This document shows positions 27,497 through 64,000 of a DNA stretch of 64,000 nt, piece after piece; within the stretch, counting starts at the first letter, position 1; each line of letters opens with the position of its first letter. Position numbers and translations under genes: made by a program. Location of the stretch: contig JAXLQX010000001.1 in the NCBI GenBank assembly GCA_046331405.1, positions 576,471 through 640,470 on the forward strand, in the 5' to 3' direction. The notes beneath the pieces are model-generated. The model saw only the letters and a list, made by a program, of their open reading frames with translations, was not told the origin of the DNA and did not search any database. This DNA is from Thermoanaerobaculia bacterium (GTDB lineage: Bacteria > Acidobacteriota > Thermoanaerobaculia > Multivoradales > SZUA-115).

Positions 27497-27616
27497 GAAG
27501 GAGGCGGGCCTCCAACCAGCAGGGCCGGGTTGGGTTTGGGGGCCCGGGAGGTTCGCGAGATCCTCCCCGGGGCCGTCGACAAAGTTCAAAGTGTAGCAGC
27601 AACGGTGGCTGCGGGC

Positions 27617-35960: not shown

Positions 35961-36680
35961 ATGGTATCGACCCTCCTCGCGCTGGCCCTGACCCTGCCGG
36001 CAACGGCTGCAGCCAACGACCTCACGGTGGACCAGATCCTCAGCCGGGCTGTCGAGGCCCGGGGTGGGGCAGCGCGCCTCAAGGAGCTGCGCTCGATCCG
36101 CACCCAGGGTGATTTTCTGGTTCAAGACGTCAAGCAGCCGTTCGTCCTCTACCGCCAGCGTCCCGACCATCTGCGCTCCGAGATCCAGACCCGCAAGGGC
36201 GCCGTCGTGCGGGTTTTCGCCGACGGCAAGGGCTGGGAGGTGAACCCCACCCAGGGCTCCACGGCGCCGCGGGTGCTGAGCGACGCCGAAGCGGCGGGTC
36301 TGCGCCGCCAAGCGGACTTCGATGGCCCTCTTCTCGATGCCAAAGCCAAGGGTCATCAGTGGCGGTTGGTGGGCCGCGAGAAGCTGGGCGACAAGGACGC
36401 CTATCACCTCGAGGTGAAGCTCGCGAGCGGCGACTCCGAGTCCTGGTGGGTGGATGCCGGGGACTTTCACGTGGTTAAGTCGGTTCAGAAGCAGACCGTG
36501 GCCGGCCAGCTCACCGACCTAGTCACTGAATACAGCGATTTTCGCGATGTCTCAGGAGTGAAGCTGCCGTTCCGTATCGACACCGAGCAAGTGGCACTCG
36601 GCCGCAAGACCACGCTCCTGGTGCAGTCGATCGCGGTCGATGCCGAGATGTCCGGGGATCTCTTCAGGATGCCCGGCTAA
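35961..36680 (+). CDS. Secreted LolA-like / outer-membrane-lipoprotein-sorting-like protein
   Basis: Start re-placed at ATG 35961, giving signal peptide MVSTLLALALTLPATAAA. Beta-rich, about 240 aa. Family assignment is tentative. Confidence 0.4.
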   Translation: MVSTLLALALTLPATAAANDLTVDQILSRAVEARGGAARLKELRSIRTQGDFLVQDVKQPFVLYRQRPDHLRSEIQTRKGAVVRVFADGKGWEVNPTQGSTAPRVLSDAEAAGLRRQADFDGPLLDAKAKGHQWRLVGREKLGDKDAYHLEVKLASGDSESWWVDAGDFHVVKSVQKQTVAGQLTDLVTEYSDFRDVSGVKLPFRIDTEQVALGRKTTLLVQSIAVDAEMSGDLFRMPG

Positions 36681-36711
36681 GCGTGGCCGTGCCCCATGTC
36701 GGAGCCATGCC

Positions 36712-42700: not shown

Positions 42701-43157
42701 GAGCCGAGGAACCGGCGACGGGAGCGAGCGAAGGGCTCAGCGCCGCGAGCCTCGCGCGCTTGCCGGCCGCCGAGCGAGAGGCCCGACTGCGGGAGTACCT
42801 GCGCGAGCTGGTGGCCCGGGTGCTCGGCCTGCCTGCGGCACGCCTCGAGGACGACCGGCCGGTGAACCGCCTGGGTATGGACTCGCTGATGGCCGTGGAG
42901 ACCCGCAATCGCGTGGAGATGGACCTCGGGGTGAGCGTTCCCGTGGTGACCCTGCTCCAGGGGGCCACGCTGCGGGAGCTCACGGAGCGGATCCAGGCGG
43001 AGCTGGGCGCGAGCCCTGCCGGCTCCGCCGCTCCGCCGCCGGCCGGCCCCGGCGAACCCGGCCACGAGGTGGTTGCCGAGATCGACCTCGAGGCGCTCTC
43101 CGAGGGCCAGGTCGACTCGCTCTTACGAGACCTCCTGGAGAGCCAGGGCAGCGCTCC

Positions 43158-43161
<4 letters not shown>
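36712..43161 (+). CDS. Type I polyketide synthase, single fully reducing module KS-AT-DH-ER-KR-ACP
   Basis: KS: DTACSSSLVALHQA, EAHGTGT, NIGHTEGAAG. AT: GQSLGEVAAAHVAG with the YASH specificity motif (methylmalonyl-type). DH: HPLLGWRLESALHAGTRFWQTE. ER: LIHSATGGVGLAA. KR: YLVTGGLGGLG. ACP: LGMDSLMAV. Start at MTRDRRSPQSDDVAIVGLSCRFP. ATGA overlap with the next gene. Confidence 0.9.
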
Positions 43162-48866
<5,705 letters not shown>

Positions 48867-48872
48867 GCCGCC

Positions 48873-50516
48873 ATGCGCCGAGGCCTGGACTGCGTCGTGA
48901 TCGGTTACAACGATCCACCTTTCGAACGCTATGCCGAACTCCTGCGGCAATACGGCGTGGATTCGCCGGCCTATCGCGACCTCAAGCTCTCCTCGGTGAC
49001 ACTCGACGGCAAGATGATGGGCTACGTCGACCTGCTCAACCGGAGTCTCGGCGAGGCCTGGGGCCGAGACCCACGGCTGCGCTCGGGGGACATCCCCTCC
49101 CTCGCGGCCGCCTATCTGGTGAGCTATCTGCGCCGGCACGGCGCGAGCGCCTGCTATATCAACCTTTTCCAGGAGGAGAAGAACCGGCTGGCAGAGCTGC
49201 TGGCGGAGGGGCCCCTCTGTGTGGCGATCACCACCACGCTCTATGTGCTGAATTTTCCGGTGAACGAGATGGTGGAGTTCATTCGCGCCATGGACCCCAC
49301 GGGCAAAGTGAAGATCGTGGTGGGCGGGCCGCTGGTGGCCAACCATGTCCGCAACTACCAGGGCGGCGAAGGCCTCGACGCGGCCCTCCAGGATCTCGGC
49401 GCCGACTACTACGTCTGCGAGGCCCAGGGCGAGGCGACGCTCGCGCAGCTGGTGCGCGCCCTGCGCGACGGCGGCGACCTCGCTGCGGTGCCGAACCTCT
49501 ACTACTTCGAGGCCGGCCGGCTGGTCTCGACCGCCCAGGCGCCGGAAAACAACTCCTTGGACGAGCATCACGTGGACTGGCGGCTGCTGGCCGACCACGG
49601 GCTGGGTGCCACGGTTCAGACCCGCACCGCCCGCAGCTGCGCCTTCAAGTGCTCGTTCTGCAATTATCCGGCGCGGGCCGGCAAGCTCACTCTTGCCAGC
49701 GTCGAGACCGTGCAGGCCGAGCTCGACGCCTTGCGCGAGGCGGGCGTGCGCAACGTGGTGTTCATCGACGACACCTTCAACGTGCCGTTGCCGCGCTTCA
49801 AGGCCCTCTGCCAGATGATGATCCGGCAGAATTATCCCTTCCGTTGGTTCTCCTACTTCCGCTGCAGCAACTCCGACGCCGAGGCGGTGGAGCTGATGGC
49901 GCGAAGCGGCTGCGGGGGTGTGTTCCTGGGCATCGAAAGCGGCTCGCCGACGATCCTCACCAACATGGACAAGGCGGCCACGATCGAAAAGTACCGCGAA
50001 GGCATCCGGATGCTGCGCGAGCACGGCATTCTGACCTTCGGTTCTTTCATCACCGGTTTTCCAGGCGAGACCGACGCCACCGTGGCCGAGACGGTCGACT
50101 TTCTCGAAACCACCGGGCTGGACTACTACCGCACGCAGCTGTGGTATTGCGAGCACGGCACGCCGATCGAGCGCCGCCGCGAGCTCCATGGCATCGAAGG
50201 GGAAGGTTTCGTCTGGTCCCACGCCACCATGGACAGCCTGGAAGCGATGGATCACATCGAGCGGATCTTCCTGTCGGTGACCGGTCCGATCTGGCTGCCG
50301 CAATGGTCGTACGATTTCTGGATCCTGCCATACCTGCTGGGAAAAGGTTTCCAACGCGATCAGCTGGACGGCTTCCATCGCCAGGCCCAGAAACTGATGG
50401 CGTTGGAGGTCGCCACTCTCTCCGAGCGAGACCGCCAGGGGCGCCGCGAGGCCTTGATGGCGAGCACGGTGGCGGCTGCCCGCACCTGGCAGGCAAGGAA
50501 CGAGGTGGCTCTATGA
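48873..50516 (+). CDS. Cobalamin-binding (class B) radical SAM enzyme
   Basis: N-terminal B12-binding Rossmann domain (VVIGYNDPPFERY...KIVVGGPL) and canonical TRTARSCAFKCSFCNYP (Cx3Cx2C). Starts 6 nt after the NRPS1 stop. ATGA overlap with the NRPS2 start. Confidence 0.8.
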   Translation: MRRGLDCVVIGYNDPPFERYAELLRQYGVDSPAYRDLKLSSVTLDGKMMGYVDLLNRSLGEAWGRDPRLRSGDIPSLAAAYLVSYLRRHGASACYINLFQEEKNRLAELLAEGPLCVAITTTLYVLNFPVNEMVEFIRAMDPTGKVKIVVGGPLVANHVRNYQGGEGLDAALQDLGADYYVCEAQGEATLAQLVRALRDGGDLAAVPNLYYFEAGRLVSTAQAPENNSLDEHHVDWRLLADHGLGATVQTRTARSCAFKCSFCNYPARAGKLTLASVETVQAELDALREAGVRNVVFIDDTFNVPLPRFKALCQMMIRQNYPFRWFSYFRCSNSDAEAVELMARSGCGGVFLGIESGSPTILTNMDKAATIEKYREGIRMLREHGILTFGSFITGFPGETDATVAETVDFLETTGLDYYRTQLWYCEHGTPIERRRELHGIEGEGFVWSHATMDSLEAMDHIERIFLSVTGPIWLPQWSYDFWILPYLLGKGFQRDQLDGFHRQAQKLMALEVATLSERDRQGRREALMASTVAAARTWQARNEVAL

Positions 50517-53500
50517 GTGGAACGCCCACCACCGGCTATCGTCTCTCGCCTCTCCAGCGCCGGCTCTGGCGCGTCCTCGAGCCAGGGGAGCAGGCCCTCA
50601 CCCGGCTGGAGCTGGAGGTTCGTGGCCGGTTGGAGCCGCAGACGCTGCTTGCCGCGGCGAGGCAGGTGGCGGCTCGCCACGAGGCCCTGCGCACGAGCTA
50701 CTCCCTGCCGGCGGGGTTCCGCGTGCCCTTCCAGGTGGTGGCGCCGGAGCCAGCCGTGGCGATGAACGAGCACGCGAGCTCCGTGCAGACGGGGCTCGGC
50801 TTGCGCTTCGAGGAGCTCGGGCCCGCGCACTTCCGGCTCGAGCTTTCCGCCCCGGCCCTCGGCTGCGATGCCGAGAGCCTGGCCACGGTGGCGGGCGAGC
50901 TGCTGCATCTGGCGGCCGGCGGCGGCGCCGAGGACCTCGCCCCGGAGCCCCTCCAGTACGTGGACTTCTCGGAGTGGCAGCACGAGCAGCTGGAGCAGGG
51001 GGACCCGGCGCTGGCCGTCGCCCGGAGCTTCTGGCAGGAAGTAGAGCTCGCGCCGCTCCAGGCCCTCAGCCTGCCGTTCGAGCTTGCCGCCCGCAGCGCC
51101 GGGGGAGGCAGGGCGAGCGAGCGGCTGCAACGCCGCCTCGAAGGCGAAGATCTGGCCGCGGCCCGAGAGCTCGAGGCCCGCCTGGGCTCGAGGCCGGGGG
51201 CGCTGGCCCTCGCCGTCTGGCTGATCTGGCTCGAGCAGCGCTGCCGGCTGGCGGCGCCGACCACGTCGATCCGGCTGGAGGGCCGCAACCTGCCCGAGCT
51301 GGAGGGGGCAGTAGGCCTCTTCGCCCGCTGGCTGCCCCTGGTCCACCGCGCCCCGGAGAGCCTGCGCTTCGCCGAGCTGGTGAGCCGGGTCTCGAAGGCC
51401 CTGGGCGAGGCCGGGGGGCATCAGGGCGGCTTCGCCTGGCCGGAGACCGAGGGCGAGGAACCAGCTACGCCGCGGGTGGGCTTCGCCCGCCTCGGCCTGC
51501 CCGCCTTCTCCCTGCCGGGCCTCGAGGCCCGCGCCACAGGGCTCGAGAGCGCGCCAGAGGGCCAAGCGCTGGTGCTCGAGGTGCTGGAGAGCGACGAGGC
51601 CTGGCAGCTCGGCTTCCGGTTCGACCCGTCACGGCTGCTCCAAGAGGACGTGGCGATGGCCGCCGGCGAGTGGCTGGAGCTGCTCGGCCAGGGGCTCCGC
51701 CGGCCGGACACCCCGCTCGGCCGCCTTTCGCTGCTCGGCAGCGAGGCTCGCTCGAGCCTGCTCCAGAGCTGGCGCGGGGCAGGCCGCTCGGCCGAGCCCC
51801 GGGCGTCTCTGCCCGAGCAGATCTTCGCCGCGGCCCGTGAAGTGCCGGATCGCGTGGCGGTGGTCTTCGAGAGCGAGTTCTTGAGCTACGGTGCGCTCGC
51901 CCGTGGAGCCGAGGCTCTGGCCGCCCGGCTCGATGGGCAGGGCCCGGAGTCGGTGGTGGGGCTCTGCCTGGAGCGCTCGACCGAGCTCATGGCCGGCCTC
52001 CTGGGAATCTGGCGAGCCGGGGCTGCCTACTGCCCGATCGACCCGGCCCAGCCGCGCGAGCGCCTCCGCCGCCTGATGGAGGACCTCCGGGCCCCGGCGG
52101 TGGTGACTTCGGCCGAGCTCGCCCCCCGACTCGAAGCGGCCGGCGGGCGGCCGGTGGTGATCGGCGAGGTGAGCCCGAGCCCGGCGCCGCTTCGCAAGCT
52201 CGCTCCAGAGCCGAGCTCCCTCGCCTACGTGATCTTCACTTCGGGTTCCACGGGCCGGCCCAAGGGGGTGGCGGTGGAGCATCGCCAGCTCGCCCACTAC
52301 GTGGCCGCGGCCCGGGCCGCCCTCGACCTGCCCGCCGGGGCAAGCTACGCCTCGGTGTCCACCCTGGCCGCCGACCTCGGCAACACGGCGATCTTCCCGG
52401 CGCTGGCGAGCGGCGGCACCCTCCACCTGCTCTCGCTCGAGCGGGCGGCCGATGCCGAGGCGTTCACCGGCTACTTCCGGGAGCGGCCGGTCGAGGGCCT
52501 GAAGATCGTGCCCAGCCATCTCGAGGCCGTGCTCGAGGCGGACGCCACGGCGCCGCTGCCGTGGCGCCGCCTGGTGCTGGGCGGCGAAGCCTGCCGCCCC
52601 GAGTGGGCGGCGGCCCTGGCCGGGCGCATGGCCGGGGGGCGGGTGTTCAACCACTACGGCCCCACCGAGACCACCGTGGGCGCGCTCACCGACCCGGTCG
52701 GGCCTTCCCCGGGAGACTCCCGCCTGCGCGCCTGGCCCCTCGGCCGGCCGCTCGAGGGGATGCGTGCCTACCTGCTCGACCGGCGCGGCGAGCCCTTGCC
52801 GCTGTGGGCCCCCGGCGAACTCTTCCTGGCGGGAGACGGGGTGGCTCGCGGCTACCTGGGCCGGCCCGCCCAGACCGCCGAGCGCTTCCTGCCGGACCCG
52901 CTGAGCCCATCGCCCGGCGCTCGCCTCTACCGCACCGGCGACCTCGCCCGCCGCCTGCCGGACGGCCGCATCGAGTTTCTCGGCCGCAGCGACCACCAGG
53001 TGAAGTATCACGGCTTCCGCATCGAGCTGGCCGAGATCCGCGCCGCGCTGAACCAGCACCGGGCGGTGCGCAACAGCGCCATCCGTCTGCTCAAGGACGA
53101 CGCCGGACGCGACGTGCTGGTGGCCTACTACGTGGCGCGCGAGGAGCTGGACCCGGCGGAGCTGCGCACCTTCCTGGGGGAGCACATCCAGGAGGAGACT
53201 CTCCCCGGCTATTTCGTGCACCTGCGCCGGCTGCCCCTCACCCTCAACGGCAAGGTGAACCTCGAGGCCCTGCCGGAGCTCGCCGAGGTGCGCCAGAAAC
53301 TGGCCCGCCACTTCGTGGCTCCCACCACCGAGACCGAGAAAGCCCTGGCGGCGATCTGGGGCGAGCTCCTGGGCCTCAGCCGGGTGGGGGTGGAGGAGAG
53401 CTTCTTCGAGCTGGGCGGGCATTCGCTGCTGGCCACCCGAATGGCCTCCCGGATCCGCCGGGGCTTCGGCGTGGTGCTGCCGCTGCGGGCCCTCTTCGAG

Positions 53501-53647
53501 GCGCCCACCATCGCTCTGCTCGCCCGTCGGGTGGAAGCGGAGCGCGGCACCGCCGCCCCGGCCGAGGTGGTCCTGGTGGCCGAGAGCCTGGACATCGAAG
53601 CCCAGCTCGCCGAGCTCGCCGGGGGCAAACCGGAGGAGGTCGTTTGA
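50513..53647 (+). CDS. NRPS subunit 2: degenerate C-like domain (no HHxxxDG) - A - PCP
   Basis: N-terminus YRLSPLQRRLW...HEALRTSYS is C-like, but the catalytic motif position reads SAPALGCDAES (no His). A domain LAYVIFTSGSTGRPKGV, NHYGPTETTV, YRTGDLA, KYHGFRIELAEIR. PCP FFELGGHSLLATRM. TTGA overlap with the next gene. Confidence 0.85.
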   Translation: MSGTPTTGYRLSPLQRRLWRVLEPGEQALTRLELEVRGRLEPQTLLAAARQVAARHEALRTSYSLPAGFRVPFQVVAPEPAVAMNEHASSVQTGLGLRFEELGPAHFRLELSAPALGCDAESLATVAGELLHLAAGGGAEDLAPEPLQYVDFSEWQHEQLEQGDPALAVARSFWQEVELAPLQALSLPFELAARSAGGGRASERLQRRLEGEDLAAARELEARLGSRPGALALAVWLIWLEQRCRLAAPTTSIRLEGRNLPELEGAVGLFARWLPLVHRAPESLRFAELVSRVSKALGEAGGHQGGFAWPETEGEEPATPRVGFARLGLPAFSLPGLEARATGLESAPEGQALVLEVLESDEAWQLGFRFDPSRLLQEDVAMAAGEWLELLGQGLRRPDTPLGRLSLLGSEARSSLLQSWRGAGRSAEPRASLPEQIFAAAREVPDRVAVVFESEFLSYGALARGAEALAARLDGQGPESVVGLCLERSTELMAGLLGIWRAGAAYCPIDPAQPRERLRRLMEDLRAPAVVTSAELAPRLEAAGGRPVVIGEVSPSPAPLRKLAPEPSSLAYVIFTSGSTGRPKGVAVEHRQLAHYVAAARAALDLPAGASYASVSTLAADLGNTAIFPALASGGTLHLLSLERAADAEAFTGYFRERPVEGLKIVPSHLEAVLEADATAPLPWRRLVLGGEACRPEWAAALAGRMAGGRVFNHYGPTETTVGALTDPVGPSPGDSRLRAWPLGRPLEGMRAYLLDRRGEPLPLWAPGELFLAGDGVARGYLGRPAQTAERFLPDPLSPSPGARLYRTGDLARRLPDGRIEFLGRSDHQVKYHGFRIELAEIRAALNQHRAVRNSAIRLLKDDAGRDVLVAYYVAREELDPAELRTFLGEHIQEETLPGYFVHLRRLPLTLNGKVNLEALPELAEVRQKLARHFVAPTTETEKALAAIWGELLGLSRVGVEESFFELGGHSLLATRMASRIRRGFGVVLPLRALFEAPTIALLARRVEAERGTAAPAEVVLVAESLDIEAQLAELAGGKPEEVV

Positions 53648-56600
53648 GCCTGGAGGGCGCAAGCTCCCTCGAGCGACGGCTCGCCGCGTTGACGCCGCCA
53701 CAGCGCGCGGCTCTCGCCGAGCGCAACCCGCTCTCCTTCGCCCAGGAGCGGATGTGGTTTCTCGACCAGCTCTTCGGTGGCAGCGCCTTCTACCACGGCG
53801 GCGCCGCCCTCTGCCTTCACGGCGAGCTCGAGGTGGCTGCGCTCGCCGCCGCCCTCTCCGAGCTCGCCCGCCGGCACCACGTTCTCCGTTCCGTGTTCCC
53901 GGCGCTCGACGGCGTGCCGGCCCAGCTGGTGCTGCCGGCGGCGGCAGTGGCCCTGCCGGTGGTGGACCTCGCAGCCCTCGCCCCGCTGGATCGTGAGCGG
54001 GCGGCCGCGGCGCTGGCCGCCCACGAGGTGGCCCGCCCCTGCCGGCTGGATCAAGGCCCCGTCTGGCGCCGCCTGCTGCTGCGATTGGCGACACGAGAGC
54101 ACCGGCTGATCGCCACTCTCCACCACATCGCGGCCGACCGCTGGTCCCTGGCCATCCTGGCCCGAGAGCTGGGCGAGCTCTACGCCGCCCGGCTCGCCGG
54201 CCGGCCGGCGGAGCTGCCTTCTCTCCCCGTGCAGTACGGCGACTTCGCCCGCTGGCAGCGTCGCCTGCCTGCCGAGGCGTTCGCGGGGGACCTCGCCTAC
54301 TGGCGAAGCCAGCTCGCCGCCCTGCCGCCGCCCCTCGAGCTGCCGGTGGACCACCCCCGGCCGGCCCGTCCCGGCCTGCGCGGCCGCCGCCACCACCACC
54401 ACCTGGCGGCTGGCCTCGAAGGACGCCTGCAGAGCGTGGCCCGGCGCGAGGGAGCCACGCCATTCATGCTGGTGCTCGCGGCCCTGGCCGCACTGCTGGC
54501 GCGCTGGACGGGCAGCCAGGACGTGCTGCTGGGAAGCCCCCTGGGGGCTCGGGAGCGAGAGGAATTCGAGCCGCTGATCGGCCTCTTCCTCAACACCCTG
54601 CCGCTGCGGCTGCGGCCCGGGCGGGGCCTCAGCTTCCGCCAGCTCCTGGCCGAGGCCGGGCAGGTGGCCCTCGAGGCCCAGGACCACGCTGCCCTTCCCT
54701 TCGAGAAGATCGTCGAGGCCGTCCAGCCGGAGCGCCAGCTCGATCGCAATCCGCTCTTCCAGGTTCTCTTCGCTTACCAGAACGTGCCGCGAGAGCGGTT
54801 GGCTCTGGGCAGCCTCGAGGTGGAGCTGGCGGAAGTGGAGAGGCAGAGCGCCCTCTTCGATCTCTCGCTCTCGTTCGAGGAGGAGGCGGAGGGGCTGAGC
54901 CTCGGGGTGGATTACAGCCGGGACCTCTTCGACGCCACCACCGTGGCGCGGCTGGCCCGGCACCTGGAGCGGCTGCTCACGGCCGCCCTCGAGAACCCGG
55001 AGGAGCGGCTCGAAGCGCTGCCCTGGTTGGCCGCAGCCGAGGAGCACCAGCTGCTCCGGGAGTGGAGCGACACCGCGGTTGCCGGCGATCCGCCCTCCCC
55101 GTTCGAGCTCTTCAGCCTCCAGGTTGCGGCACGGCCGGAGGCGAGCGCCGTTGCCTGCGACGGCGAGGTGCTCAGCTACGGCGAGCTCCACCGCCGGGTC
55201 CGCCGCCTGGCGGCCGCCCTCGAGGGGCAGGGTGTGGGCCCGGGCTCGCGGCTGGGGCTCTATCTCGAGCGCTCGCCCGAGCAGCTCCAGGCCCTGCTGG
55301 CCGCCCTCTGCCAGCGCGCCGCCTACGTACCCCTCGACCCGGCCTTCCCGGCGGAGCGGCTGCGTTTCATGGCCGAGGATGCCGGCCTCGCTGCGATCCT
55401 GGTGGCCGAGCGCGCGGCGGCCCCGCCCGAGTTCGCCGGCAGGTTGCTGGCTCTGGGCGAGCTCGAAGCCCCGGCCGAGGGCCCGGGCGCGGCGCCGGGC
55501 GGCGACTGGCCGGCCTACCTGATCTACACCTCCGGCTCCACCGGGCGGCCGAAAGGCGTGGTGGTACCGGCCTCGGCGGTGAGCAACTTCCTGCTCTCGA
55601 TGGCCGAACGGCCGGGCCTCTCTGCCTGCGAGCGACTGGTGGCGATCACCACGCTCTCCTTCGACATCGCCGTCCTGGAGCTGCTGCTGCCGCTGGTGGT
55701 GGGCGCCCAGGTGGTGCTCGCCCGGCGGGCGACGGCGAGCGACCCTCTGCGCTTGGCCGGGCTCCTGGCCGAGCAGGCGGCCAACGCCCTCCAGGCCACG
55801 CCGGCGACCTGGCGGGCCTTGCTCGAGAGCGGCTGGCAGCCGCCCGCGGGGCTGGCCCTGCTCTGCGGCGGCGAGTCCCTGCCGCTCGAGCTGGCGGAGC
55901 GGCTTTGCCAGGGGGAGAGCTGGCTGTGGAACCTCTACGGCCCCACCGAGACCACCGTGTGGTCCACGCTCGAGCGCTGGCAGCGGGGCGAGCCGAGCGT
56001 TGCCGCGGGCCGGCCGATCGCCAACACCGGGGCCTTTGTGCTGGACCGCGGCGGCCGGCCGCTGCCCGTGGGCGCCCCGGGCGAGCTCGCGCTCGGCGGC
56101 CGCGGCGTGAGCTGGGGCTACAGCGGCCGGCCGACGGCCACCGCCGAGCGTTTCCGGCCGGACCCCTTCGCCGATCGGCCGGGGCAGCGCCTCTACCACA
56201 CCGGGGATCTGGTGCGCCGGGGCCCGGATGGGCGCCTCGAATGGCTCGGCCGGCTGGACCATCAGGTCAAGCTGCGGGGTTTCCGCATCGAATTGGGCGA
56301 GGTGGAGGCGGCGCTCGCGAGCCACCCAGGAGTGGCCCAGGCCGTGGCGCTGGTGATCGGGCCGGAGCCGGCCGCGCTGGTGGGGGTGGTTCGGCCTCGC
56401 CCCGAACAAAGCCCGGCCGGCGCGGCTCTCTTGGCGCATCTCGGCCAACGCCTGCCGGGCTACATGGTGCCGTCGCAGATCGTCCTGGTAGACCCGCTGC
56501 CGCTCACTCCCAACGGCAAAGTGGACCGCCGGGCCCTGGGCGAGCAGGTGGCGACCCTGCGGCGGGGCGCGGCGCCGGAGGAAGGGCCCTCCGGCTCGCA

Positions 56601-59600
56601 GCTCGCCCAGCTGCTGGCGGCGATCTGGGCGGAAGTCCTGGGCCGGGAAGAAGTGGGCGAGCACGAGGACTTCTTCGCCCTCGGCGGACATTCGCTGTTG
56701 GCGGTTCGGCTGGTCGCCCGGCTGCGGGCCACCGTGGCTCCCGGGGCCGAGCTGCGCACCCTGTTCGACCACCCCACTCCCGCGAGTTTCGCCCTGGCGC
56801 TGCCGGCGAGCTCTGGCGAAGTACAACCTCTGGCCCCGATTCCCCGCCTCGAGCGCGGCGGCTTGCTGCCTCTCTCTTCGGCCCAGCAGCGCCTGTGGTT
56901 CCAGGACCAGCTCGAGGGGGAGCTCTCGGCGCTCGCCTTGCCAGCGCCGTTGCGGCTCTCGGGGCCGCTCGACCCGCGCCGAATGTCGACGGCGCTGGGG
57001 GCCCTTGTGGCCCGCCATGAGCTGCTGCGCACCCGCTTCCCGGTCGAGGCCGGGCGAGTGTGGGCGGAGATCACCCCCGCCGGGCCCCTGGCCTTGCCGG
57101 AGGTGGACCTCTCGGGCCTGCCTGCGGCTCGGCGGCCTGCCGAGGGCTCCCGTCTCCTCGCCGTCGACCTGCGAAGGCGCTTCCCGCTCGCAAGCTCGCC
57201 CCCGCTGCGCTGCGCGCTGCTGCGCCTGTCGGCGGCCGAGCACTGGCTGCAGCTCACGCTTCATCACATCGCCGGTGATCTCGGCTCCCTCGCGGTGCTG
57301 CTCCGGGAGCTCTCGGTGCTTTACCGGCAAGGGCAGGAGGCGCTTGCCCCGCTCGAGCTTCAACATGTCGATTTCGCCGCCTGGCAGCGGGGCGTCCTGG
57401 CCGGGCCCGGGCGCGAGGCGGAGCTGGCCTGGTGGCGGAGCACCCTGGAAGACCTGCCGCCGAGCTTCGAGCTGCCGGCCGACCGGCCCCGCCTGCCCGG
57501 CCAGGAGCCGCGAGGCGCCCGGGCGTCCTTCGCGCTCGCTCCCGGGCTGGTGCAGGCGCTGAGGCGCCAGGGCCGAGCCCTGGCGCTCACTCCGTTCATG
57601 CAGTTGGCCACGGGCCTCGCGCTGCTGCTCGGCCGCCTCGGCCGCAGCCGGGATCTGGCCCTGGCGACGCCGGTCGCCGGCCGGGACCGGCCCGAGCTCG
57701 CGGAGATGATCGGCCCGTTGCTCAACACGGTGGCGATCCGGCTGAGCCTCGCAGCCAACCCCACGGTGGCCGAGGCGCTGGCCATCGTGCGCGCTCAGGT
57801 GCTGGGGGCCCTGGCCCACCAGGAGCTGCCCTTCGACGAAGTCGTGACTTCCCTCGGCCTTGCCCGAGGCGGCGGCTCGCCGCCCTGGCTGGCCGCCCTG
57901 CTCGCGGTGCAGAACCTCGCCCTGCCGGCCCTCGACTTCGGCGCGCTCGAGGCCGAGCCGCTCGAGGTGGAAAAGCAAGCCGTGCAGTTCGAGTTGGTGG
58001 CGTTCTTCGCCGAGCGCCAGGGCGGCCTGGCCGGCGGCTTCAACTACCGCAGCGATCTCTTCGACCGCACCACCATCGAGCGCTGGCGAGGTTGGCTCGA
58101 GCGCCTGCTCGAGGGGGTCGCGACCCGGCCGGAGGCGCGGGCCTGGGACCTGCCCTGGTGGAGCCCGGCCGAGCACCAGCAGCTGCTCTGCGAATGGAGC
58201 GAGAGCAGGCGACTGCCCGAGGCGGGCCCCGAGGAGGGGCCCTGGTGCCTCTTCGCCGCCGCCTGCCGGCGGGCCCCGGAACGAGTAGGGGTGGTTTTCG
58301 AGGGCGAACACTGGAGCTATGGGGCGCTCGCCGCCCGGGCCGCCGCCGGCGCCGCCGAGCTCGAGGCCTTCGGAGTGGGGCCGGAGCAGCTGGTGGCGAT
58401 CTGCCTGGAACGCTCGGTGGCGCTCGTGGTCGCCGTGCTCTCGGTGCTCGGGGCCGGGGCGGCCTACGTGCCGCTCGATCCCGCCTGGCCCCGGGAGCGG
58501 CTGGCGAGCCTGCTCACGGAGCTGGGCCATCCCTGGGTGCTGAGCGGTCCCCTCGAGCGGGAGCTCCTGCCGGCCAACGCCCGGGCGCTCGAGCCGGCCC
58601 GAGTGCCAGCTGAGCCTGTGCCGGCCCCGCTGCCCGACGCCCGGCAGCTGGCCTACTTGATCTACACCTCCGGCTCCACCGGCCGGCCCAAGGGCGTGAT
58701 GATCTCCCGCGGCAGCGCTGCCCACCTGGCCCGCTCCCAGGTGGTGGCCTTCGGCCTGGGCGAGGGCGAGCGGGTGCTGCAGTTCTCGGCGATCACCTTC
58801 GACGCTTCGGTTTCGGAGCTGCTCACGGCGTGGGCGGTGGCGGGAACTCTGGTCCTCGGTCGCCGCGAGCAGCTGGCGGATTCGGGGGAGCTCGCCGGGC
58901 TCGCCAGCCGCGAGCGGATCGACCTCGTGACGCTGCCGCCTTCGCTTCTGGCCCGGCTCGCTGCCGGCTCGTTGCCGGCGCAGACCACCCTGGTGGTGGC
59001 CGGCGAGGCCACTTCGGCCGAGTTGGTGGACCGCTGGGCCCCGGGGCGTCGAATGCTCAACGCCTACGGCCCGACCGAGTGCACCGTGGGCGCCACCGTG
59101 GGGCTCTGCGAGGTCGGCGCTGGCGCGCCGCCGGCCCTGGGCCGCCCCACCCGGGGTTACCGGCTGCACGTGGTGGACCCCGGGGGGCAGCTCACGCCCC
59201 CGGGAGCCCCGGGGGAGCTCTGGATCGGCGGCGAGGGAGTGGCCCGGGGCTATTGGCGCCGGCCCGGGGAAACGGCGGCGCGCTTCGTGCCCGACCCCTG
59301 GAGCGGCGAGCCGGGCGCTCGCCTCTACCGCACCGGTGACCTCGGGCGCCAGCTTGCCGATGGCCGCTTGCGCTATCTCGGGCGCATCGATGCCCAGCTC
59401 AAGGTGCACGGTGTGCGCATCGAGCCGGCCGAGATCGAAGCCGCGTTCCTGGCCCATGGGGCCGTGCGCGAGGCGGCCGTGCAGCTCGCCTGGCGCGGCG
59501 CCGAGCGGGTGCTCGTGGCCTATCTGGGGGTGGGGGCGAGTGGGGTGAGCGAAAGCGCGCTGCGCGCCCACCTGGCGGAGCGCCTGCCGCGCACTCTGAT

Positions 59601-62427
59601 GCCCGCGGCGCTGGTGCTGCTCGAGCGGCTGCCCCTCTCCTCTCACGGCAAGGTCGATCGGCGGGCTCTCGAAGAGCTGCCGGTCGAGGTCGCGGCTTCG
59701 AGCTCTGCGGGCCCGCCCCGCGACGCCCTGGAGAGACGCCTGGCCGAGTTGTGGCAGGACATTCTCGGCCGCGGGGCCGGCACGGTGGGCGTGGGCGACG
59801 ATTTCTTCGCCCTGGGCGGCAGCTCGATCGATGCGGCGATCCTGGTCAACCGCCTGCAGGAGGAGCTCGGCGAGCACGTCTACGTGGTGGCGCTGTTCGA
59901 CGCCCCCACCCTCGGAGATCTCGGCGTCTGGCTCAAGCGCCACTACCCGGCCGCCGTGGAGCGTCGCTTCGGGGTGAGCGGCGGGCAGTCGGCCCCCGAG
60001 GGCGCGCAGCGGGATGGCCGGCCGCTCGGCGCGGCGGATCTCGCCGCGCTGGCCGGCCGGGTGGAGCCCCCGGCGGCGGCCCGGAGAGCTCGCCAGCGCC
60101 GGCCGGCGATCTTCGTGCTCTCGCCGCCGCGTTCGGGCTCCACGCTGCTGCGCGTGCTGCTCGGCGGGCATTCGCAGCTGTTCGCGCCGCCCGAGCTGGA
60201 CCTGTTCTCCTTCGCCACCCTGGGCGAGCGCCGCCGGGCCTTCTCCGGGCGTTTCGCCTTCTGGCGCGAGGGCCTGATCCGCGCCGTCATGGAGCTTGCC
60301 GGAAGCGACGCCCCGGCCGCCGAGCGGCTGGTCGAGGGCTTCGAAGAGCGCGACGCCGAGGTTTCCGAGGTGCTCGGCTGGTTGCTCGACGCCTGCGCTC
60401 CTCGCCTGTTGGTGGACAAGACGCCGGCCTACGCCCTCCACCCCGCGATCCTCGAGCGCCTGGAAGACGAGGTGCCGGGCGCCCACTACATCCACCTGCT
60501 CCGCCACCCGCAGGCGGTGATCGCCTCCTTCGTCGAAGCCCATCTCGATCAGCTCTTCTTCCGCCCCGAGCACCCCTACAGCGGGCCCGAGCTGGCGGAG
60601 CTGGTGTGGCAGCTCAGCCAGCGCAACATCCTGGAATTCCAGCGCCGCGTGGCCCCGGAGCGCTGGCATCCGGTGCGCTTCGAAGAGCTGGTGGCGGCGC
60701 CGGCCGAGGTGATGGCGAGGCTCTGCGCGGGCCTCGGCCTCAAGCTCGAGCCGGCCATGCTCGAGCCCTACGGCGATGGGCGCGGCCGGATGACCGACGG
60801 CATCCATCCGCTGTCCAAGATGCTGGGCGACGTGAAGTTCCACCAGCACTCGGCGATCGACCCGGCGGCGGCCCACCGCTGGCAGCAACAGCAAGGCCTC
60901 CGGCCCCTCGCCCCCGGGACCGTGGCCCTGGCCGAGCGGCTCGGCTACCCGGCCCCCGAAGCGCCGCTGTCCTTCGCCCAGCAGCGCTTCTGGCTGGCCC
61001 ACCGGCTGGACGCCTCCGGCTACGCCTACAACATCCCGGCCGCCGTGGAGCTCGAGGGCGAGCTCGATGCCCGGGCCCTCGCCGACGCCCTCGGCGACCT
61101 CGTTGCTCGGCATCAGGTGCTGCGCAGCTTCTTCCCGGTGGTCGAGGGCAGGCCCGTGGCCCGCTTCCGGCTGCCGGCCGGAGAGCCCCTGCCAAGGCTG
61201 GATCTCGAGGGCCTGGGCGAGGGCGCCGCCGCCGAGGCCGCCCGGCTGGGCGCGCGGGAGGCGAAGCGGCCGTTCGCCCTCGGGACCGGGCCGGTGGTGC
61301 GGATGCGCTTGCTCCGCCTCGGGCCGGCCCGTCACCGCCTGCTCTTCACTGCCCACCACATCGCGAGCGACGCCTGGTCCTCGGCGATCGTGCTTGCCGA
61401 GCTCGACACCCTCTACTCGGCGCGGCTCGCCGGCCGCCGGGCCGAGCTGCCCGAGCTCGCCGTCCAGTACGCGGACTTCGCCCGCCACCAGCGCGAGGAG
61501 CCGCCGGCCGGGCGGCAAGCGGCACTCGCCTACTGGCAGCGTGAGCTGGCACCGCCCTGGCCGCGCCTCGCCCTACCGGTGGACCGGCCCGAGGCTGCGG
61601 CCCTCGCCACCGCCGGCGCTCGCCTCACCATTGCCGTGCCGCCGCCGGTCGCCACGCGGCTGGTTGCCCTCGCCCGCGAGGAGAGCGCCACGCCGTTCGC
61701 CGCCCTGCTCGCAGCCTTCGGCCTGGTACTCGGGCACCTCGGCGGGCAGACGGATCTGGTGGTGGGCACCAACTTCGCCGAGCGAGGCCGGCCGGAGCTC
61801 GAGGGGCTGATCGGCTGCTTCGTCAACCAGCTCGCGCTGCGCCTCTCGCTCGCCGGCGAGCCCAGCCTGCGCGAGCTGCTGCGCCGTGCCCGGCGCACGC
61901 TGGTGGAGGCCCAGCGCCACGGCGAGGTTCCCCTGGAGCAGGTGCTGGAGCAGCTCGGCCTGGGCCCCCGCGCCGGCCAGGGGCAAGGCGAGGAGATCTT
62001 CGAGGCCAAGTTCGAGCTGCTCAACGTGCCGCGCGAGCGGCCGCGGCTGGGCCCGCTCGAGGTGCATCCGCTGGTCGAAGACCGCGGTGTGGTGCGCTAC
62101 CTCCTCCACCTGCTGCTCGAGGTGGGCGACGACGGCGGATTCCACGGCCTCTTCCAATACGACGGCGGGCGCCTCGAGGCCGCCACGGCGCGCGAGTGGA
62201 GCTGCCTTTTCGTCGATGCCTGCCGGCTGCTCGCCGAGCGGCCGGAGCTCGCTTTCGCTGCCGCGAAGGCCGAGCTCGCCTCCGCGGCCGAGCTGCGGCA
62301 GCAGGAGTCGGGGCGATTGCAGCGCCAGGCCAACGCCCGGCGCCTCGGCCAGAGCCGGCGCCCTGCCGCCGTCGCCAACCTCAGCACCCCCCAGGAGCCT
62401 TTCGACGATGAGCGACCCAACGCCTGA
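53644..62427 (+). CDS. NRPS subunit 3: C-A-PCP-C-A-PCP-sulfotransferase-C
   Basis: C HHIAADRWS. A1 AYLIYTSGSTGRPKGVVV, YHTGDL. PCP FFALGGHSLLAVRL. C LHHIAGDLGS. A2 AYLIYTSGSTGRPKGVMI, NAYGPTECTV, YRTGDLG. PCP FFALGGSSIDAAIL. Sulfotransferase PAPS motifs IFVLSPPRSGSTLL (5'-PSB) and LLRHPQAVIAS (3'-PB RxxxxxxS). Terminal C HHIASDAWS. TTG start overlapping the NRPS2 stop. Confidence 0.85.
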   Translation: MSLEGASSLERRLAALTPPQRAALAERNPLSFAQERMWFLDQLFGGSAFYHGGAALCLHGELEVAALAAALSELARRHHVLRSVFPALDGVPAQLVLPAAAVALPVVDLAALAPLDRERAAAALAAHEVARPCRLDQGPVWRRLLLRLATREHRLIATLHHIAADRWSLAILARELGELYAARLAGRPAELPSLPVQYGDFARWQRRLPAEAFAGDLAYWRSQLAALPPPLELPVDHPRPARPGLRGRRHHHHLAAGLEGRLQSVARREGATPFMLVLAALAALLARWTGSQDVLLGSPLGAREREEFEPLIGLFLNTLPLRLRPGRGLSFRQLLAEAGQVALEAQDHAALPFEKIVEAVQPERQLDRNPLFQVLFAYQNVPRERLALGSLEVELAEVERQSALFDLSLSFEEEAEGLSLGVDYSRDLFDATTVARLARHLERLLTAALENPEERLEALPWLAAAEEHQLLREWSDTAVAGDPPSPFELFSLQVAARPEASAVACDGEVLSYGELHRRVRRLAAALEGQGVGPGSRLGLYLERSPEQLQALLAALCQRAAYVPLDPAFPAERLRFMAEDAGLAAILVAERAAAPPEFAGRLLALGELEAPAEGPGAAPGGDWPAYLIYTSGSTGRPKGVVVPASAVSNFLLSMAERPGLSACERLVAITTLSFDIAVLELLLPLVVGAQVVLARRATASDPLRLAGLLAEQAANALQATPATWRALLESGWQPPAGLALLCGGESLPLELAERLCQGESWLWNLYGPTETTVWSTLERWQRGEPSVAAGRPIANTGAFVLDRGGRPLPVGAPGELALGGRGVSWGYSGRPTATAERFRPDPFADRPGQRLYHTGDLVRRGPDGRLEWLGRLDHQVKLRGFRIELGEVEAALASHPGVAQAVALVIGPEPAALVGVVRPRPEQSPAGAALLAHLGQRLPGYMVPSQIVLVDPLPLTPNGKVDRRALGEQVATLRRGAAPEEGPSGSQLAQLLAAIWAEVLGREEVGEHEDFFALGGHSLLAVRLVARLRATVAPGAELRTLFDHPTPASFALALPASSGEVQPLAPIPRLERGGLLPLSSAQQRLWFQDQLEGELSALALPAPLRLSGPLDPRRMSTALGALVARHELLRTRFPVEAGRVWAEITPAGPLALPEVDLSGLPAARRPAEGSRLLAVDLRRRFPLASSPPLRCALLRLSAAEHWLQLTLHHIAGDLGSLAVLLRELSVLYRQGQEALAPLELQHVDFAAWQRGVLAGPGREAELAWWRSTLEDLPPSFELPADRPRLPGQEPRGARASFALAPGLVQALRRQGRALALTPFMQLATGLALLLGRLGRSRDLALATPVAGRDRPELAEMIGPLLNTVAIRLSLAANPTVAEALAIVRAQVLGALAHQELPFDEVVTSLGLARGGGSPPWLAALLAVQNLALPALDFGALEAEPLEVEKQAVQFELVAFFAERQGGLAGGFNYRSDLFDRTTIERWRGWLERLLEGVATRPEARAWDLPWWSPAEHQQLLCEWSESRRLPEAGPEEGPWCLFAAACRRAPERVGVVFEGEHWSYGALAARAAAGAAELEAFGVGPEQLVAICLERSVALVVAVLSVLGAGAAYVPLDPAWPRERLASLLTELGHPWVLSGPLERELLPANARALEPARVPAEPVPAPLPDARQLAYLIYTSGSTGRPKGVMISRGSAAHLARSQVVAFGLGEGERVLQFSAITFDASVSELLTAWAVAGTLVLGRREQLADSGELAGLASRERIDLVTLPPSLLARLAAGSLPAQTTLVVAGEATSAELVDRWAPGRRMLNAYGPTECTVGATVGLCEVGAGAPPALGRPTRGYRLHVVDPGGQLTPPGAPGELWIGGEGVARGYWRRPGETAARFVPDPWSGEPGARLYRTGDLGRQLADGRLRYLGRIDAQLKVHGVRIEPAEIEAAFLAHGAVREAAVQLAWRGAERVLVAYLGVGASGVSESALRAHLAERLPRTLMPAALVLLERLPLSSHGKVDRRALEELPVEVAASSSAGPPRDALERRLAELWQDILGRGAGTVGVGDDFFALGGSSIDAAILVNRLQEELGEHVYVVALFDAPTLGDLGVWLKRHYPAAVERRFGVSGGQSAPEGAQRDGRPLGAADLAALAGRVEPPAAARRARQRRPAIFVLSPPRSGSTLLRVLLGGHSQLFAPPELDLFSFATLGERRRAFSGRFAFWREGLIRAVMELAGSDAPAAERLVEGFEERDAEVSEVLGWLLDACAPRLLVDKTPAYALHPAILERLEDEVPGAHYIHLLRHPQAVIASFVEAHLDQLFFRPEHPYSGPELAELVWQLSQRNILEFQRRVAPERWHPVRFEELVAAPAEVMARLCAGLGLKLEPAMLEPYGDGRGRMTDGIHPLSKMLGDVKFHQHSAIDPAAAHRWQQQQGLRPLAPGTVALAERLGYPAPEAPLSFAQQRFWLAHRLDASGYAYNIPAAVELEGELDARALADALGDLVARHQVLRSFFPVVEGRPVARFRLPAGEPLPRLDLEGLGEGAAAEAARLGAREAKRPFALGTGPVVRMRLLRLGPARHRLLFTAHHIASDAWSSAIVLAELDTLYSARLAGRRAELPELAVQYADFARHQREEPPAGRQAALAYWQRELAPPWPRLALPVDRPEAAALATAGARLTIAVPPPVATRLVALAREESATPFAALLAAFGLVLGHLGGQTDLVVGTNFAERGRPELEGLIGCFVNQLALRLSLAGEPSLRELLRRARRTLVEAQRHGEVPLEQVLEQLGLGPRAGQGQGEEIFEAKFELLNVPRERPRLGPLEVHPLVEDRGVVRYLLHLLLEVGDDGGFHGLFQYDGGRLEAATAREWSCLFVDACRLLAERPELAFAAAKAELASAAELRQQESGRLQRQANARRLGQSRRPAAVANLSTPQEPFDDERPNA

Positions 62428-62527
62428 GCCCCGCGTGCCCGGAGTGGACCTGGTGACCTGGATCGCCGGGCCCCGGCGGATCCCCGTCGAGATGGGCCAG
62501 GCCGCCAGCGGGGAGCCCCGGCCGTGA
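62408..62527 (+). CDS. Possible 38-aa bridging ORF between NRPS3 and NRPS4 (hypothetical)
   Basis: ATG at 62408 overlaps the NRPS3 stop in the +1 frame. Encodes MSDPTPEPRVPGVDLVTWIAGPRRIPVEMGQAASGEPRP. Its TGA overlaps the GTG start of the next NRPS gene (CCGTGAGCC). Confidence 0.2.
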   Translation: MSDPTPEPRVPGVDLVTWIAGPRRIPVEMGQAASGEPRP

Positions 62528-64000
62528 GCCAGGCCGGCTTCCGCCTCTCGCCGGAGCAGCGGGCCGCCTGGGCGGCGGCCGAGCAGGGCCGGGCCCTGCC
62601 CTGGGTGGCCCGGGTGGAGTTCGCCGGCGAGCTCGAGCCGCAGGCCTGTCGCCGGGCCCTCTCGGCTCTCGGCAGTCGACTCGAGATCCTGCGCACCGGC
62701 TTCGACTTCGCCCCCGGCCTCACCGTGCCTCTGCAGTGGGTGAAGGAGGAGGCGCGACCGAAGCTCGCCTGGCTGGACCTCACCGCGCTCGCGGCGGGGG
62801 ACCGCGACCGTGCGGCGAGCGAGGTCGCCCGCGAGGCGGCTGCCGCCGGCCGGCCCTGGCAGCAGGGAGGGGTGGAGCTGCTGGTGGCCAAGGCCGGCCC
62901 GGCCGCCGGCTGGCTGCTCTGGAAGAGCTCGCCCCTGGTGGCGGGGCCACAGAGCCTGTGGTTGCTCGCCTCCGCCTGGGCGGAAGAGGTGGCTGGCTCG
63001 CCTGGAGCCGACACGCTCCAGTACGCCGACCTCGCCGAGTGGCAGAACAGTCTGCTCGAAGGTGAGGAAACCGCCCAGGAGCGGCTCTACTGGCGATCCT
63101 GGGCCGGGAGCTCCCGGCCAGAAGGAACCTGGGCGTCGCCGCCGGAGGGAGAGCGGCCGCCGCAGCCCGCCGTGGCTCGGCGCCGGCTGCCGGGCGAGGT
63201 GATCCACAGCCTGGCCGCGGCCGGCAACCTCGAGGGGGAGCTCGCGGCCTGCTGGTGGCTCCAGGCGGCGGCCTGGCAGGCCGAGGGCGAGCCGGCTCTG
63301 GGCCTGCTCGCGAACGGGCGCTCCTACGAGGATCTCGAACGCGCCGTGGGGCCTCTCGCCCGCCACCTGCCCCTGCGCCTGCCGGCGCCACAGGCGGCCG
63401 AGGGCTTCCGTGGCTGGGCCGGGAGGGTGGGCCAGGCGCTGGCAGCGGATCGCGAGTGGCAGGAGTACTGCCCTCTGTTTCCGGAGCGAGTGCCGTACCT
63501 CACGGCCTTCGAGCATCGAGCCGTGGGCGAGCGGTGGGCTCGAGGCGGCCTGGCGCTGCGCCTGCTGGGCTTCGAGAGGGTGGCCGGTGCACCCGGCGTG
63601 GCCCTGACTCTGGCCGTGGAGAGCAGCCCGGAAGGCGTCGAGGCCCGCCTGGCATTCGACCGCGCTCGGCTGGCGCAGCGTGAAGCCGAGGCCCTGCTCG
63701 AGCGTTGGGCGGAGCTCGTCGCACGGGTGGCGGCGCAGCCGGCGGCAACGGTGGCGAGCTTCGAGCGGCTGAGCCGGGCAGACCAGGCCTGGCTCGATAC
63801 CGGCTGGAACGGCGAGCAAGGCCTGCTGCCGGACTTTGACACCGTGCTCGAGCCGATTCTCCGGGAGGCGCGCCGGGCCAGCGAGCGGGTCGCCCTGGTG
63901 GGGGGCGAGGAGCATTGGTCCTGGGGCTACCTCGAAAGCTACTCGGCCGGCCTCGCCGGCCGCTTGCGCGCCCTGGGGGCCGGGCCGGACCGCCTGGTGG
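62524..64000 (+). CDS. NRPS subunit 4 (5' part): degenerate C-like domain, then the start of an A domain; continues beyond the window
   Basis: Not in the ORF track because no stop occurs in the window. GTG start VSQAGFRLSPEQRAAW...LEILRTGFDF. The C-motif position reads SSPLVAGPQSLWLL (no His). The window ends in RVALVGGEEHWSWGYLESYSAGLAGRLRALGAG (A-domain A1/A2 region). Confidence 0.7.
   Translation, partial: MSQAGFRLSPEQRAAWAAAEQGRALPWVARVEFAGELEPQACRRALSALGSRLEILRTGFDFAPGLTVPLQWVKEEARPKLAWLDLTALAAGDRDRAASEVAREAAAAGRPWQQGGVELLVAKAGPAAGWLLWKSSPLVAGPQSLWLLASAWAEEVAGSPGADTLQYADLAEWQNSLLEGEETAQERLYWRSWAGSSRPEGTWASPPEGERPPQPAVARRRLPGEVIHSLAAAGNLEGELAACWWLQAAAWQAEGEPALGLLANGRSYEDLERAVGPLARHLPLRLPAPQAAEGFRGWAGRVGQALAADREWQEYCPLFPERVPYLTAFEHRAVGERWARGGLALRLLGFERVAGAPGVALTLAVESSPEGVEARLAFDRARLAQREAEALLERWAELVARVAAQPAATVASFERLSRADQAWLDTGWNGEQGLLPDFDTVLEPILREARRASERVALVGGEEHWSWGYLESYSAGLAGRLRALGAGPDRLV

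Follow-up and report, generated by a model that had tools for sequence, protein, structure and literature searches.

A CurM-type sulfotransferase domain within an elongation module of a Thermoanaerobaculia non-ribosomal peptide synthetase, and its predicted role in side-chain sulfation

Sulfated non-ribosomal peptides are, to our knowledge, rare, and those that are known acquire the sulfate from separate enzymes or in glyceric-acid loading modules. StaL and Teg12-14, which sulfate phenolic hydroxyls of non-ribosomal peptides, are stand-alone proteins of another sulfotransferase (ST) family and act after release of the peptide. Here, an ST domain that is part of the assembly line itself is described from a 64,000-nucleotide stretch of a Thermoanaerobaculia bacterium (contig JAXLQX010000001.1, positions 576,471 to 640,470; this whole stretch is called the window, and coordinates refer to it). 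The domain lies between a peptidyl carrier protein (PCP) domain and a condensation (C) domain of the non-ribosomal peptide synthetase (NRPS) NRPS3, and is predicted to sulfate the side chain of a carrier-bound, tyrosine-like residue, with 3'-phosphoadenosine 5'-phosphosulfate (PAPS) as the donor.

The closest characterised relatives are the STs of CurM and olefin synthase (OLS), found at the termini of cyanobacterial polyketide synthases (PKSs). There the order is acyl carrier protein (ACP)-ST-thioesterase (TE), the substrate is a β-hydroxyacyl chain made by a ketoreductase (KR), and sulfate leaves during decarboxylative release (PMC3903477). The first-pass annotation of this DNA rightly named these as the best-known in-line STs, although it left unmentioned two precedents in NRPSs, OciA (Planktothrix cyanopeptolin/oscillapeptin) and DysB (dysinosin). 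In both the ST is likewise accompanied by carrier and C domains (PMC2533009, PMC6520454). According to their descriptions, however, it belongs to an FkbH-type glyceric-acid loading module and a hydroxy-acid starter, whereas the window ST belongs to an elongation module behind an adenylation (A) domain. SulN, from the sulfazecin pathway, uses PAPS to sulfonate an NRPS intermediate while this is PCP-bound and the next step is still to come, as is predicted for the window, but it acts in trans as a protein of its own, N-sulfonates 2,3-diaminopropionate (Dap) and is followed by a special TE, in contrast to the cis fusion behind a Tyr-like module seen here (PMC11298585). OciA, DysB, SulN and predicted monobactam clusters were all that the literature search yielded; full-text literature gave no account of ST domains within NRPS elongation modules behind a Thr, Ser or Tyr A domain, a coverage that excludes most subscription journals and is not proof that none exists.

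The identity of the window ST is clear. Its score for Pfam Sulfotransfer_3 (PF13469) was 101.4-105.6 bits, the cutoff being 27 (E = 1e-28 to 6e-30), and phmmer against PDB sequences gave end-to-end matches to the CurM ST (4gbm, E = 1.4e-67) and the OLS ST (4gox, E = 7e-59), far beyond chance. Identity to these two is about 42% and the fold is the same (TM-scores 0.88-0.93): an AlphaFold2 (AF2) model built from 46 sequences, with a mean predicted local distance difference test (pLDDT) value of 91, superposes on 4gbm with a TM-score of 0.91-0.93 and a root-mean-square deviation of 2.2 Å, and on 4gox with 0.88-0.92. After CurM and OLS the nearest solved folds are the tyrosylprotein sulfotransferases TPST1/2 (TM-score about 0.6, about 20% identity), which sulfate peptide tyrosine; unlike the window ST, these are Golgi enzymes that act on free proteins and have no carrier-protein context. 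TPSTs, too, have an Arg-containing phosphosulfate-binding loop and a Glu base. It is virtually certain that the window domain is a genuine CurM-type ST. Its features, all on the + strand, are as follows.

60097-60957, +: CurM-type PAPS sulfotransferase domain, 287 aa (PF13469, alignment to 4gbm, AF2)
60121-60150, +: 5'-phosphosulfate-binding (5'-PSB) loop SPPRSGSTLL, its Arg equivalent to CurM R39 (alignment)
60187-60204, +: PPELDL, its Glu equivalent to CurM E60, with Asp at the place of CurM His62 (alignment)
60406-60432, +: LLVDKTPAY, its Lys equivalent to CurM K133 and invariant in 89/89 sequences
60496-60531, +: 3'-phosphate-binding (3'-PB) motif LLRHPQAVIASF; R, P and S invariant, H 99% conserved
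60787-60843, +: flexible flap RMTDGIHPLSKMLGDVKFH, with Leu239 at about 60811-60813 (AF2, alignment)

In an alignment of 89 STs (87 NRPS-embedded copies, CurM and OLS) the P, R, S, G, T and L of the 5'-PSB loop and the Glu of PPE are invariant, and the window ST agrees with 82 of the 89 columns that are ≥ 93% conserved. The PRSGST loop, PPE Glu, Lys and RHP..S are thus common to the window ST and the CurM/OLS enzymes. The roles given here to CurM R39, E60 (the catalytic Glu) and K133 are those reportedly assigned by McCarthy et al. in 2012, and the numbering fits the chain offset of 4gbm. The column of CurM His62 is different, since His occurs there only in CurM and OLS, while the NRPS-embedded copies have Glu (80/87) or Asp (7/87, including the window), and this clade also has conserved residues of its own (for example, FFR and GDVKFH). 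The flap is the sole low-confidence segment of the AF2 model (pLDDT about 60, falling below 50 at residues 239-241) and we take it to be the counterpart of the mobile active-site flap of the CurM ST.

The first-pass annotation had placed a PAPS-type ST between the second PCP and the C domain of NRPS3, and both PF13469 and the phmmer matches to CurM and OLS bear this out. It gave 60090-60900, where the place holds but the extent by CurM alignment is 60097-60957, ending about 60 nucleotides further on. The PCP, 5'-PSB, 3'-PB and HHIASDAWS motifs that it quoted all lie in the frame of open reading frame (ORF) 52561..62427. Two of its proposed checks were a sulfotransferase profile hit, which is significant (101-106 bits against 27), and retention of the catalytic base and PAPS lysine on alignment with CurM; the PAPS loop and base are indeed kept, but the residue of the 5'-PSB is Arg rather than Lys, and the conserved Lys is the equivalent of CurM K133.

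In the window as in CurM/OLS, the ST comes immediately behind a carrier domain; a thioester-tethered substrate, predicted for the window, would also be common to them. The arrangements nevertheless differ. The CurM/OLS STs are terminal, in ACP-ST-TE, and act on a KR-made β-hydroxyacyl chain, whereas the window ST is mid-line in A-PCP-ST-C with no ketosynthase (KS)-acyltransferase (AT)-KR directly upstream. By Pfam, NRPS3 contains no thioesterase, nor does it have an FkbH/HAD match. With no TE and no β-hydroxyacyl donor, the window ST belongs to the CurM-type fold family but not to the CurM/OLS ST-TE off-loading system. Its neighbours within the module are as follows.

58249-59676, +: A domain with the Tyr-like specificity code DASTVAAVGK (alignment to GrsA-PheA)
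59719-59970, +: PCP ahead of the ST, core GGSSI, motif FFALGGSSIDAAIL at 59803-59844 (Pfam PP-binding, E = 6.6e-15)
60961-62247, +: full-length C domain after the ST, the last domain of NRPS3 (Pfam Condensation)

The order PCP (59719-59970), ST (60097-60957) and C (60961-62247) is unbroken. The best whole-domain matches of the A domain are exclusively Tyr-class A domains with DAST/DAAT-xAAVCK codes, which likewise stand ahead of a PCP-ST. The C domain covers positions 5-440 of the 456 in Pfam Condensation (E = 2.7e-68); its HHIASDAWS (61354-61380) has Ala for the Gly of HHxxxDG, as do 8 of the 69 other C domains in the set.

This module is not an isolated case. A protein search recovered fragments that combine ST and Condensation, the best being a partial Thermoanaerobaculia protein with 61% identity. 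When one genome per species was scanned with an alignment of the ST-C junction as query, at least 429 relatives were found among the species representatives. The family counts given here are drawn from the best 80 of these 429, which make up 74 loci. Nearly all of the best 80 come from metagenome-assembled genomes (MAGs) of two phyla, Acidobacteriota (Thermoanaerobaculia, Holophagales, Pyrinomonadaceae and Blastocatellia) and Chloroflexota (Herpetosiphonaceae and Anaerolineae). Several loci have three or four ST-bearing modules per 21 kb. No locus among the representatives exceeds about 55-59% identity to the window; thus the window's species is absent from those scanned. Judged by its sequence, the window copy is one member of this extensive family, whose modules have the form A(Thr/Ser/Tyr)-PCP-ST-C and occur in Acidobacteriota and Chloroflexota.

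Specificity codes of A domains were read from an alignment to GrsA-PheA; the codes recovered agree with textbook codes. Among 89 distinct A domains in front of a PCP-ST, 39 had Thr codes (DFWNIGMVHK type), 19 Ser codes (DVWHISLVDK type) and 18 Tyr codes (DASTVAAVCK/DAATVAAVCK), while several of the 13 exceptions resemble codes for 4-hydroxyphenylglycine. Thr, Ser or Tyr codes therefore occurred in 76/89 A domains directly ahead of a PCP-ST but in only 9/78 others from the same loci (Fisher p = 2.5e-23), although this p-value, like the other counts and p-values of association, takes no account of shared ancestry. Each of the three classes falls into several separate blocks of the ST tree.

The carrier in front of the ST is also of a distinct type. 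GG[N/S/D]SI was present in 90/100 pre-ST PCPs as against 11/137 other PCPs, 111 of the 137 having GGHSL instead. Within the ST one column of the flap follows the upstream code: it is Glu in 19/19 Ser-associated and 29/38 Thr-associated STs (48/57 combined), but in the 18 Tyr-associated STs it is Trp (14) or Leu (4) and never Glu (p = 5e-11). The C domains that follow the ST have canonical HHxxxDGWS motifs and are interspersed with other C domains in a neighbour-joining tree. The window shares these family traits, having an A code of the Thr/Ser/Tyr type, a GGSSI PCP and a flap residue that matches its class. Leu occupies the diagnostic position of its flap motif HPLSKM, which recurs in the Tyr-associated ST of locus L044, and a second discriminating column of the ST has the Tyr-type Gln (Gln175).

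Domain identity, intact motifs, domain order and these family-wide associations can all be read directly from the data. Upstream codes, PCP subtype, flap residue and ordinary C domain, taken together, indicate that the ST is a tailoring domain that reads the carrier-bound side chain of its own module and whose product passes to a normal C domain. A single flap residue (Glu as against Trp/Leu/Met/Val) may help to set the acceptor.

In the mechanism favoured here, the Tyr-like A domain would load a tyrosine-like residue onto the specialised GGSSI PCP. The ST fused downstream would take the phosphopantetheine-tethered aminoacyl or peptidyl thioester and, by means of its Glu base and Arg/Lys/Ser PAPS site, move sulfate to the side-chain hydroxyl, after which the ordinary C domain would pass the now sulfated chain on to the module that the gene downstream encodes. 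The probability of this full mechanism, PAPS-dependent O-sulfonation of a tethered Tyr-like residue that is then passed on, is put at about 0.6. From the sequence comparisons we infer catalytic activity, the acceptor atom, the aminoacyl or peptidyl timing of the step and retention of sulfate in the product. A Tyr-like residue is the probable, though not certain, acceptor in the window. The on-line O- or N-sulfation of a carrier-bound intermediate suggested by the first-pass annotation thus gains comparative support from A codes, PCP subtype and flap covariation, with O favoured over N for this copy. N-sulfation of the α-amine was considered and rejected, since chain extension would then be blocked. 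Sulfate is probably kept, as it is in the ST-bearing loading modules of OciA and DysB, whose product is a sulfated glyceric acid (PMC2533009, PMC6520454).

The window has a G+C content of about 72-75% and long ORFs in all frames. Gene limits were taken from G+C at third codon positions (GC3) and from the genes called on three short metagenome contigs (6-8 kb) of identical sequence, which were reached via the radical SAM protein. An exact look-up of the NRPS3 protein gave no match, nor did an exact DNA scan of metagenome contigs with the end of the window. The assembly line reads as follows.

36640-43161, +: PKS, KS-AT-dehydratase-enoylreductase-KR-ACP (Pfam, gene calls)
43158-48866, +: NRPS1, C-A(Cys-like)-PCP-C-TauD (Pfam, specificity codes, gene calls)
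48873-50516, +: B12 radical SAM gene (gene calls, NCBIfam)
50513-53647, +: NRPS2, C'-A(Asp-like)-PCP (Pfam, specificity codes, HH motifs)
53644-62427, +: NRPS3, 2927 aa, C-A(Gly-like)-PCP-C-A(Tyr-like)-PCP-ST-C (start from the gene calls on the identical contigs; Pfam; GC3)
about 62524-64000, +: next NRPS gene, NRPS4, which leaves the window; a degenerate C-like domain, then the start of an A domain (GC3, translation, partial Pfam Condensation)

NRPS3 occupies the frame of ORF 52561..62427, its start being placed at 53644. The C domain after the ST is intact and terminal, as the first-pass annotation stated, in that it is full length and ends the protein; the assembly line, however, continues in the next gene, from about 62524. 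The N-terminal C-like domain of NRPS4 has KSSPLVAGPQS in place of HHxxxDG, and the junctions NRPS1/NRPS2 and NRPS3/NRPS4 are alike in pairing a C domain with intact HHxxxD with a following N-terminal C-like domain that lacks it. From this pairing, condensation for the first module of NRPS4 is most likely carried out by the last C domain of NRPS3. When junctions were checked in the related loci, the only proteins that stop right after ST-C were that of the window and that of locus L006, where the next gene is not an NRPS.

Alignment to GrsA-PheA gave the codes DLYNMSLIWK (Cys-like) for NRPS1 and DLTKVGHVGK (Asp-like) for NRPS2. TauD forms the C-terminal end of NRPS1, directly ahead of NRPS2 with its Asp-like A domain (window 47500-51800), so that the window shares the arrangement C-TauD, C-A(Asp)-PCP with lipopeptide siderophores of the cupriachelin/potashchelin type. 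In those the layout is FAAL-ACP-C-TauD followed by C-A(Asp)-PCP, and TauD occupies the site of the Asp β-hydroxylase (PMC7100376). On the strength of this shared layout, a β-hydroxy-Asp residue is expected in the product. The predicted product is a PKS-primed lipopeptide, acyl-X(Cys-like code)-β-OH-Asp-Gly-sulfoTyr plus at least one further residue.

Genes for an SbnB equivalog (32453-33448, +) and an SbnA equivalog (34517-35500, -), each scoring above its NCBIfam cutoff, flank an ornithine-carbamoyltransferase-like gene (33468-34448, -) whose score is just under the cutoff. The SbnA/SbnB pair implies a supply of L-Dap, perhaps carbamoylated, and resembles the SulG/SulH pair that serves the SulN pathway. 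Nevertheless, the monobactam Dap code is in none of the specificity codes of the window's A domains. A MacB/FtsX-type transporter lies upstream of the assembly line. The transporter and Dap genes are preceded by glycolytic and Uma2 genes, which suggests that the biosynthetic cluster starts near 29900.

Other genes of the window may be recorded here. The B12 radical SAM gene (48873-50516) scores 625 bits against an NCBIfam cutoff of 600 for PhpK-family radical SAM P-methyltransferases, and its last 4 bases are shared with the NRPS2 gene as called on the identical contigs. A glycolytic row encoding glyceraldehyde-3-phosphate dehydrogenase, phosphoglycerate kinase and triose-phosphate isomerase (24514-27499, -) and a Uma2-family endonuclease gene (23453-24046, +) separate another two radical SAM genes (21726-23249 and 27617-29560). 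At 2053-5333 (-) a fatty-acyl-AMP-ligase-like gene adjoins a gene for a fusion of ACP and a class I/II aminotransferase (8-amino-7-oxononanoate synthase-like); this pair, 30 kb away from the NRPS cluster, has the look of a small pathway of its own for a lipid or amino-lipid.

Sulfate might instead be a leaving group, following the logic of CurM within an NRPS, so that a dehydro-amino acid, ring or cross-link forms and the product is unsulfated. The nearest characterised relatives, CurM and the OLS ST, are activating enzymes of this kind (PMC3903477), in most of the family the ST comes after a Thr or Ser module, where β-elimination of a thioester-bound O-sulfate would give dehydrobutyrine or dehydroalanine, and STs associated with Ser and Thr have the conserved flap Glu. 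In the window, however, the residue upstream is Tyr-like and a phenolic sulfate cannot β-eliminate. TauD, at the end of NRPS1 and ahead of the Asp-like A domain of NRPS2, stands at the place of an Asp β-hydroxylase and so is no pointer to β-hydroxy-Tyr (PMC7100376). A dedicated subtype of C domain after the ST, which would have favoured elimination, was looked for and rejected because these domains are interspersed with ordinary ones in the tree and form no clade of their own; there is thus no specialised partner domain comparable to the CurM TE, the post-ST C domain being canonical. About 20% of the ST copies, moreover, follow Tyr modules. On these grounds the elimination route is unlikely for the window. 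For the family as a whole, it is about an even bet that this is a family of in-line NRPS side-chain STs in which Tyr modules would lead to sulfotyrosine lipopeptides and Ser/Thr modules might lead, by sulfation and elimination, to dehydro-amino acids. Such a route in an NRPS would parallel the activation-elimination chemistry of CurM and of lanthipeptide dehydratases.

Sulfonation of another nucleophile, such as the hydroxyl of β-OH-Asp, a PKS-derived hydroxyl or (N-sulfonation, as by SulN) the β-amine of Dap, is improbable but has some basis in the cluster, given the SbnA/SbnB equivalogs for L-Dap and the TauD beside an Asp-like module. SulN itself N-sulfonates a PCP-bound peptide (PMC11298585), and locus L060 has the monobactam Dap code ahead of its PCP-ST and shares with the window an Asp at the His62 position. 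Family-wide, though, the ST tracks the residue of its own module and not distant ones, the Dap code is missing from the window's A domains, and the flap residue and Gln175 of the window are of the Tyr-associated type. It is also improbable that the ST is a catalytically dead or structural relic between PCP and C. This is the most divergent copy, with four unique substitutions at positions conserved even in CurM/OLS and a nearly deleted linker to the C domain, but its frame is open, the invariant PAPS and catalytic residues are kept, 82/89 conserved columns agree, the confident AF2 model superposes on the CurM ST, and the dedicated PCP subtype is retained. Least probable is transient sulfation, in which the sulfate would be a protecting, solubilising or pro-drug group that a sulfatase takes off once the product has been exported. 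The evidence for on-line O-sulfation is all compatible with this, though none of it lends direct support. No convincing sulfatase was seen in the window or the flanks of the related loci in a crude motif scan whose few matches were noise-like.

Several observations weigh against on-line O-sulfation of a Tyr-like residue in this copy. The window ST is the most divergent of the set, with no more than 58% identity to any other, and it alone has the changes Y118 to L, Q122 to L, F151 to V and L64 to F (CurM numbering) at residues kept in CurM, OLS and nearly all relatives; no other deviation at Y118/Q122 was seen among the inspected copies of the 87. The ST-C linker is about 2 aa long, compared with 20-30 aa in relatives. 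The Cys of Tyr codes is Gly in the A code of the window, so that the residue loaded may be a modified aromatic amino acid. Shared ancestry could, in part, lie behind the association counts. Genes for PAPS synthesis were seen neither in the window nor in the flanks of the related loci, and motif scans for APS (adenosine 5'-phosphosulfate) kinase, ATP sulfurylase, CysD/N and sulfatase gave no credible match in the 1.19 Mb made up of the window and the loci fetched by then; PAPS would therefore have to come from primary metabolism.

A further such point is the Asp at the His62 position, which the window shares with six basal copies whose upstream codes are not of the Thr/Ser/Tyr type. These are DIWEITADDK, three of the form DxENxG, one Val-like and one without assignment; the DxENxG codes we take to be hydroxy-ornithine-like. 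DIWEITADDK is the diaminopropionate code of predicted monobactam clusters (Table S3, PMC11298585) and stands directly ahead of the PCP-ST in L060 (Anaerolinea sp. MAG, JACSRF010000585.1, ST at 10001-10843). The L060 ST may correspond, within an assembly line, to SulN, the N-sulfotransferase that acts in trans, and, because basal Asp-type copies follow codes such as this one, the family may include N-directed members.

Related STs also occur in other settings. In the cultured Thiothrix nivea DSM 5205 (JH651384.1, 8001-17290; locus L080) a stand-alone PCP-ST protein of 429 aa, ending ...EEREEWEI, is encoded directly ahead of a TubC_N-C-A-PCP-TE protein. A few genes downstream is a 2377-aa protein with the Pfam order AMP-binding, PP-binding, Sulfotransfer_3, Condensation, AMP-binding, PP-binding and nitroreductase, that is, acyl/aryl ligase (AL)-PCP-ST-C-A-PCP-nitroreductase; its AL domain is of the fatty-acyl/aryl ligase type, is incomplete in the locus and gave no usable code. 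Metagenomes contain many more PCP-ST proteins of this kind, about 430 aa long. A metagenome contig (ENA ERZ25039542 contig_31439; locus L004) has two PCP-ST-C units (2330-4345 and 10001-11329) in an NRPS region split into short gene calls, which look like frameshift errors of long-read assembly. In a partial Thermoanaerobaculia protein (P0021) the place of the C domain after an ST of this NRPS clade (PPELELL) is taken by an α/β-hydrolase/thioesterase; such STs can therefore also stand last in an assembly line.

These modules are of interest because the family is large and regular and its predictions are directly testable; the single copy in the window is less remarkable. If the proposed role is correct, a portable ST acting on carrier-bound Thr, Ser and Tyr would be a new tailoring step of NRPSs, and the PCP-ST cassette, together with a candidate specificity residue, would become available for engineering. 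The sulfate-as-leaving-group chemistry of CurM would become directly testable in NRPSs. Product predictions would change for hundreds of orphan clusters of Acidobacteriota and Chloroflexota that are difficult to culture, each ST-bearing module adding 80 Da and making the product strongly anionic.

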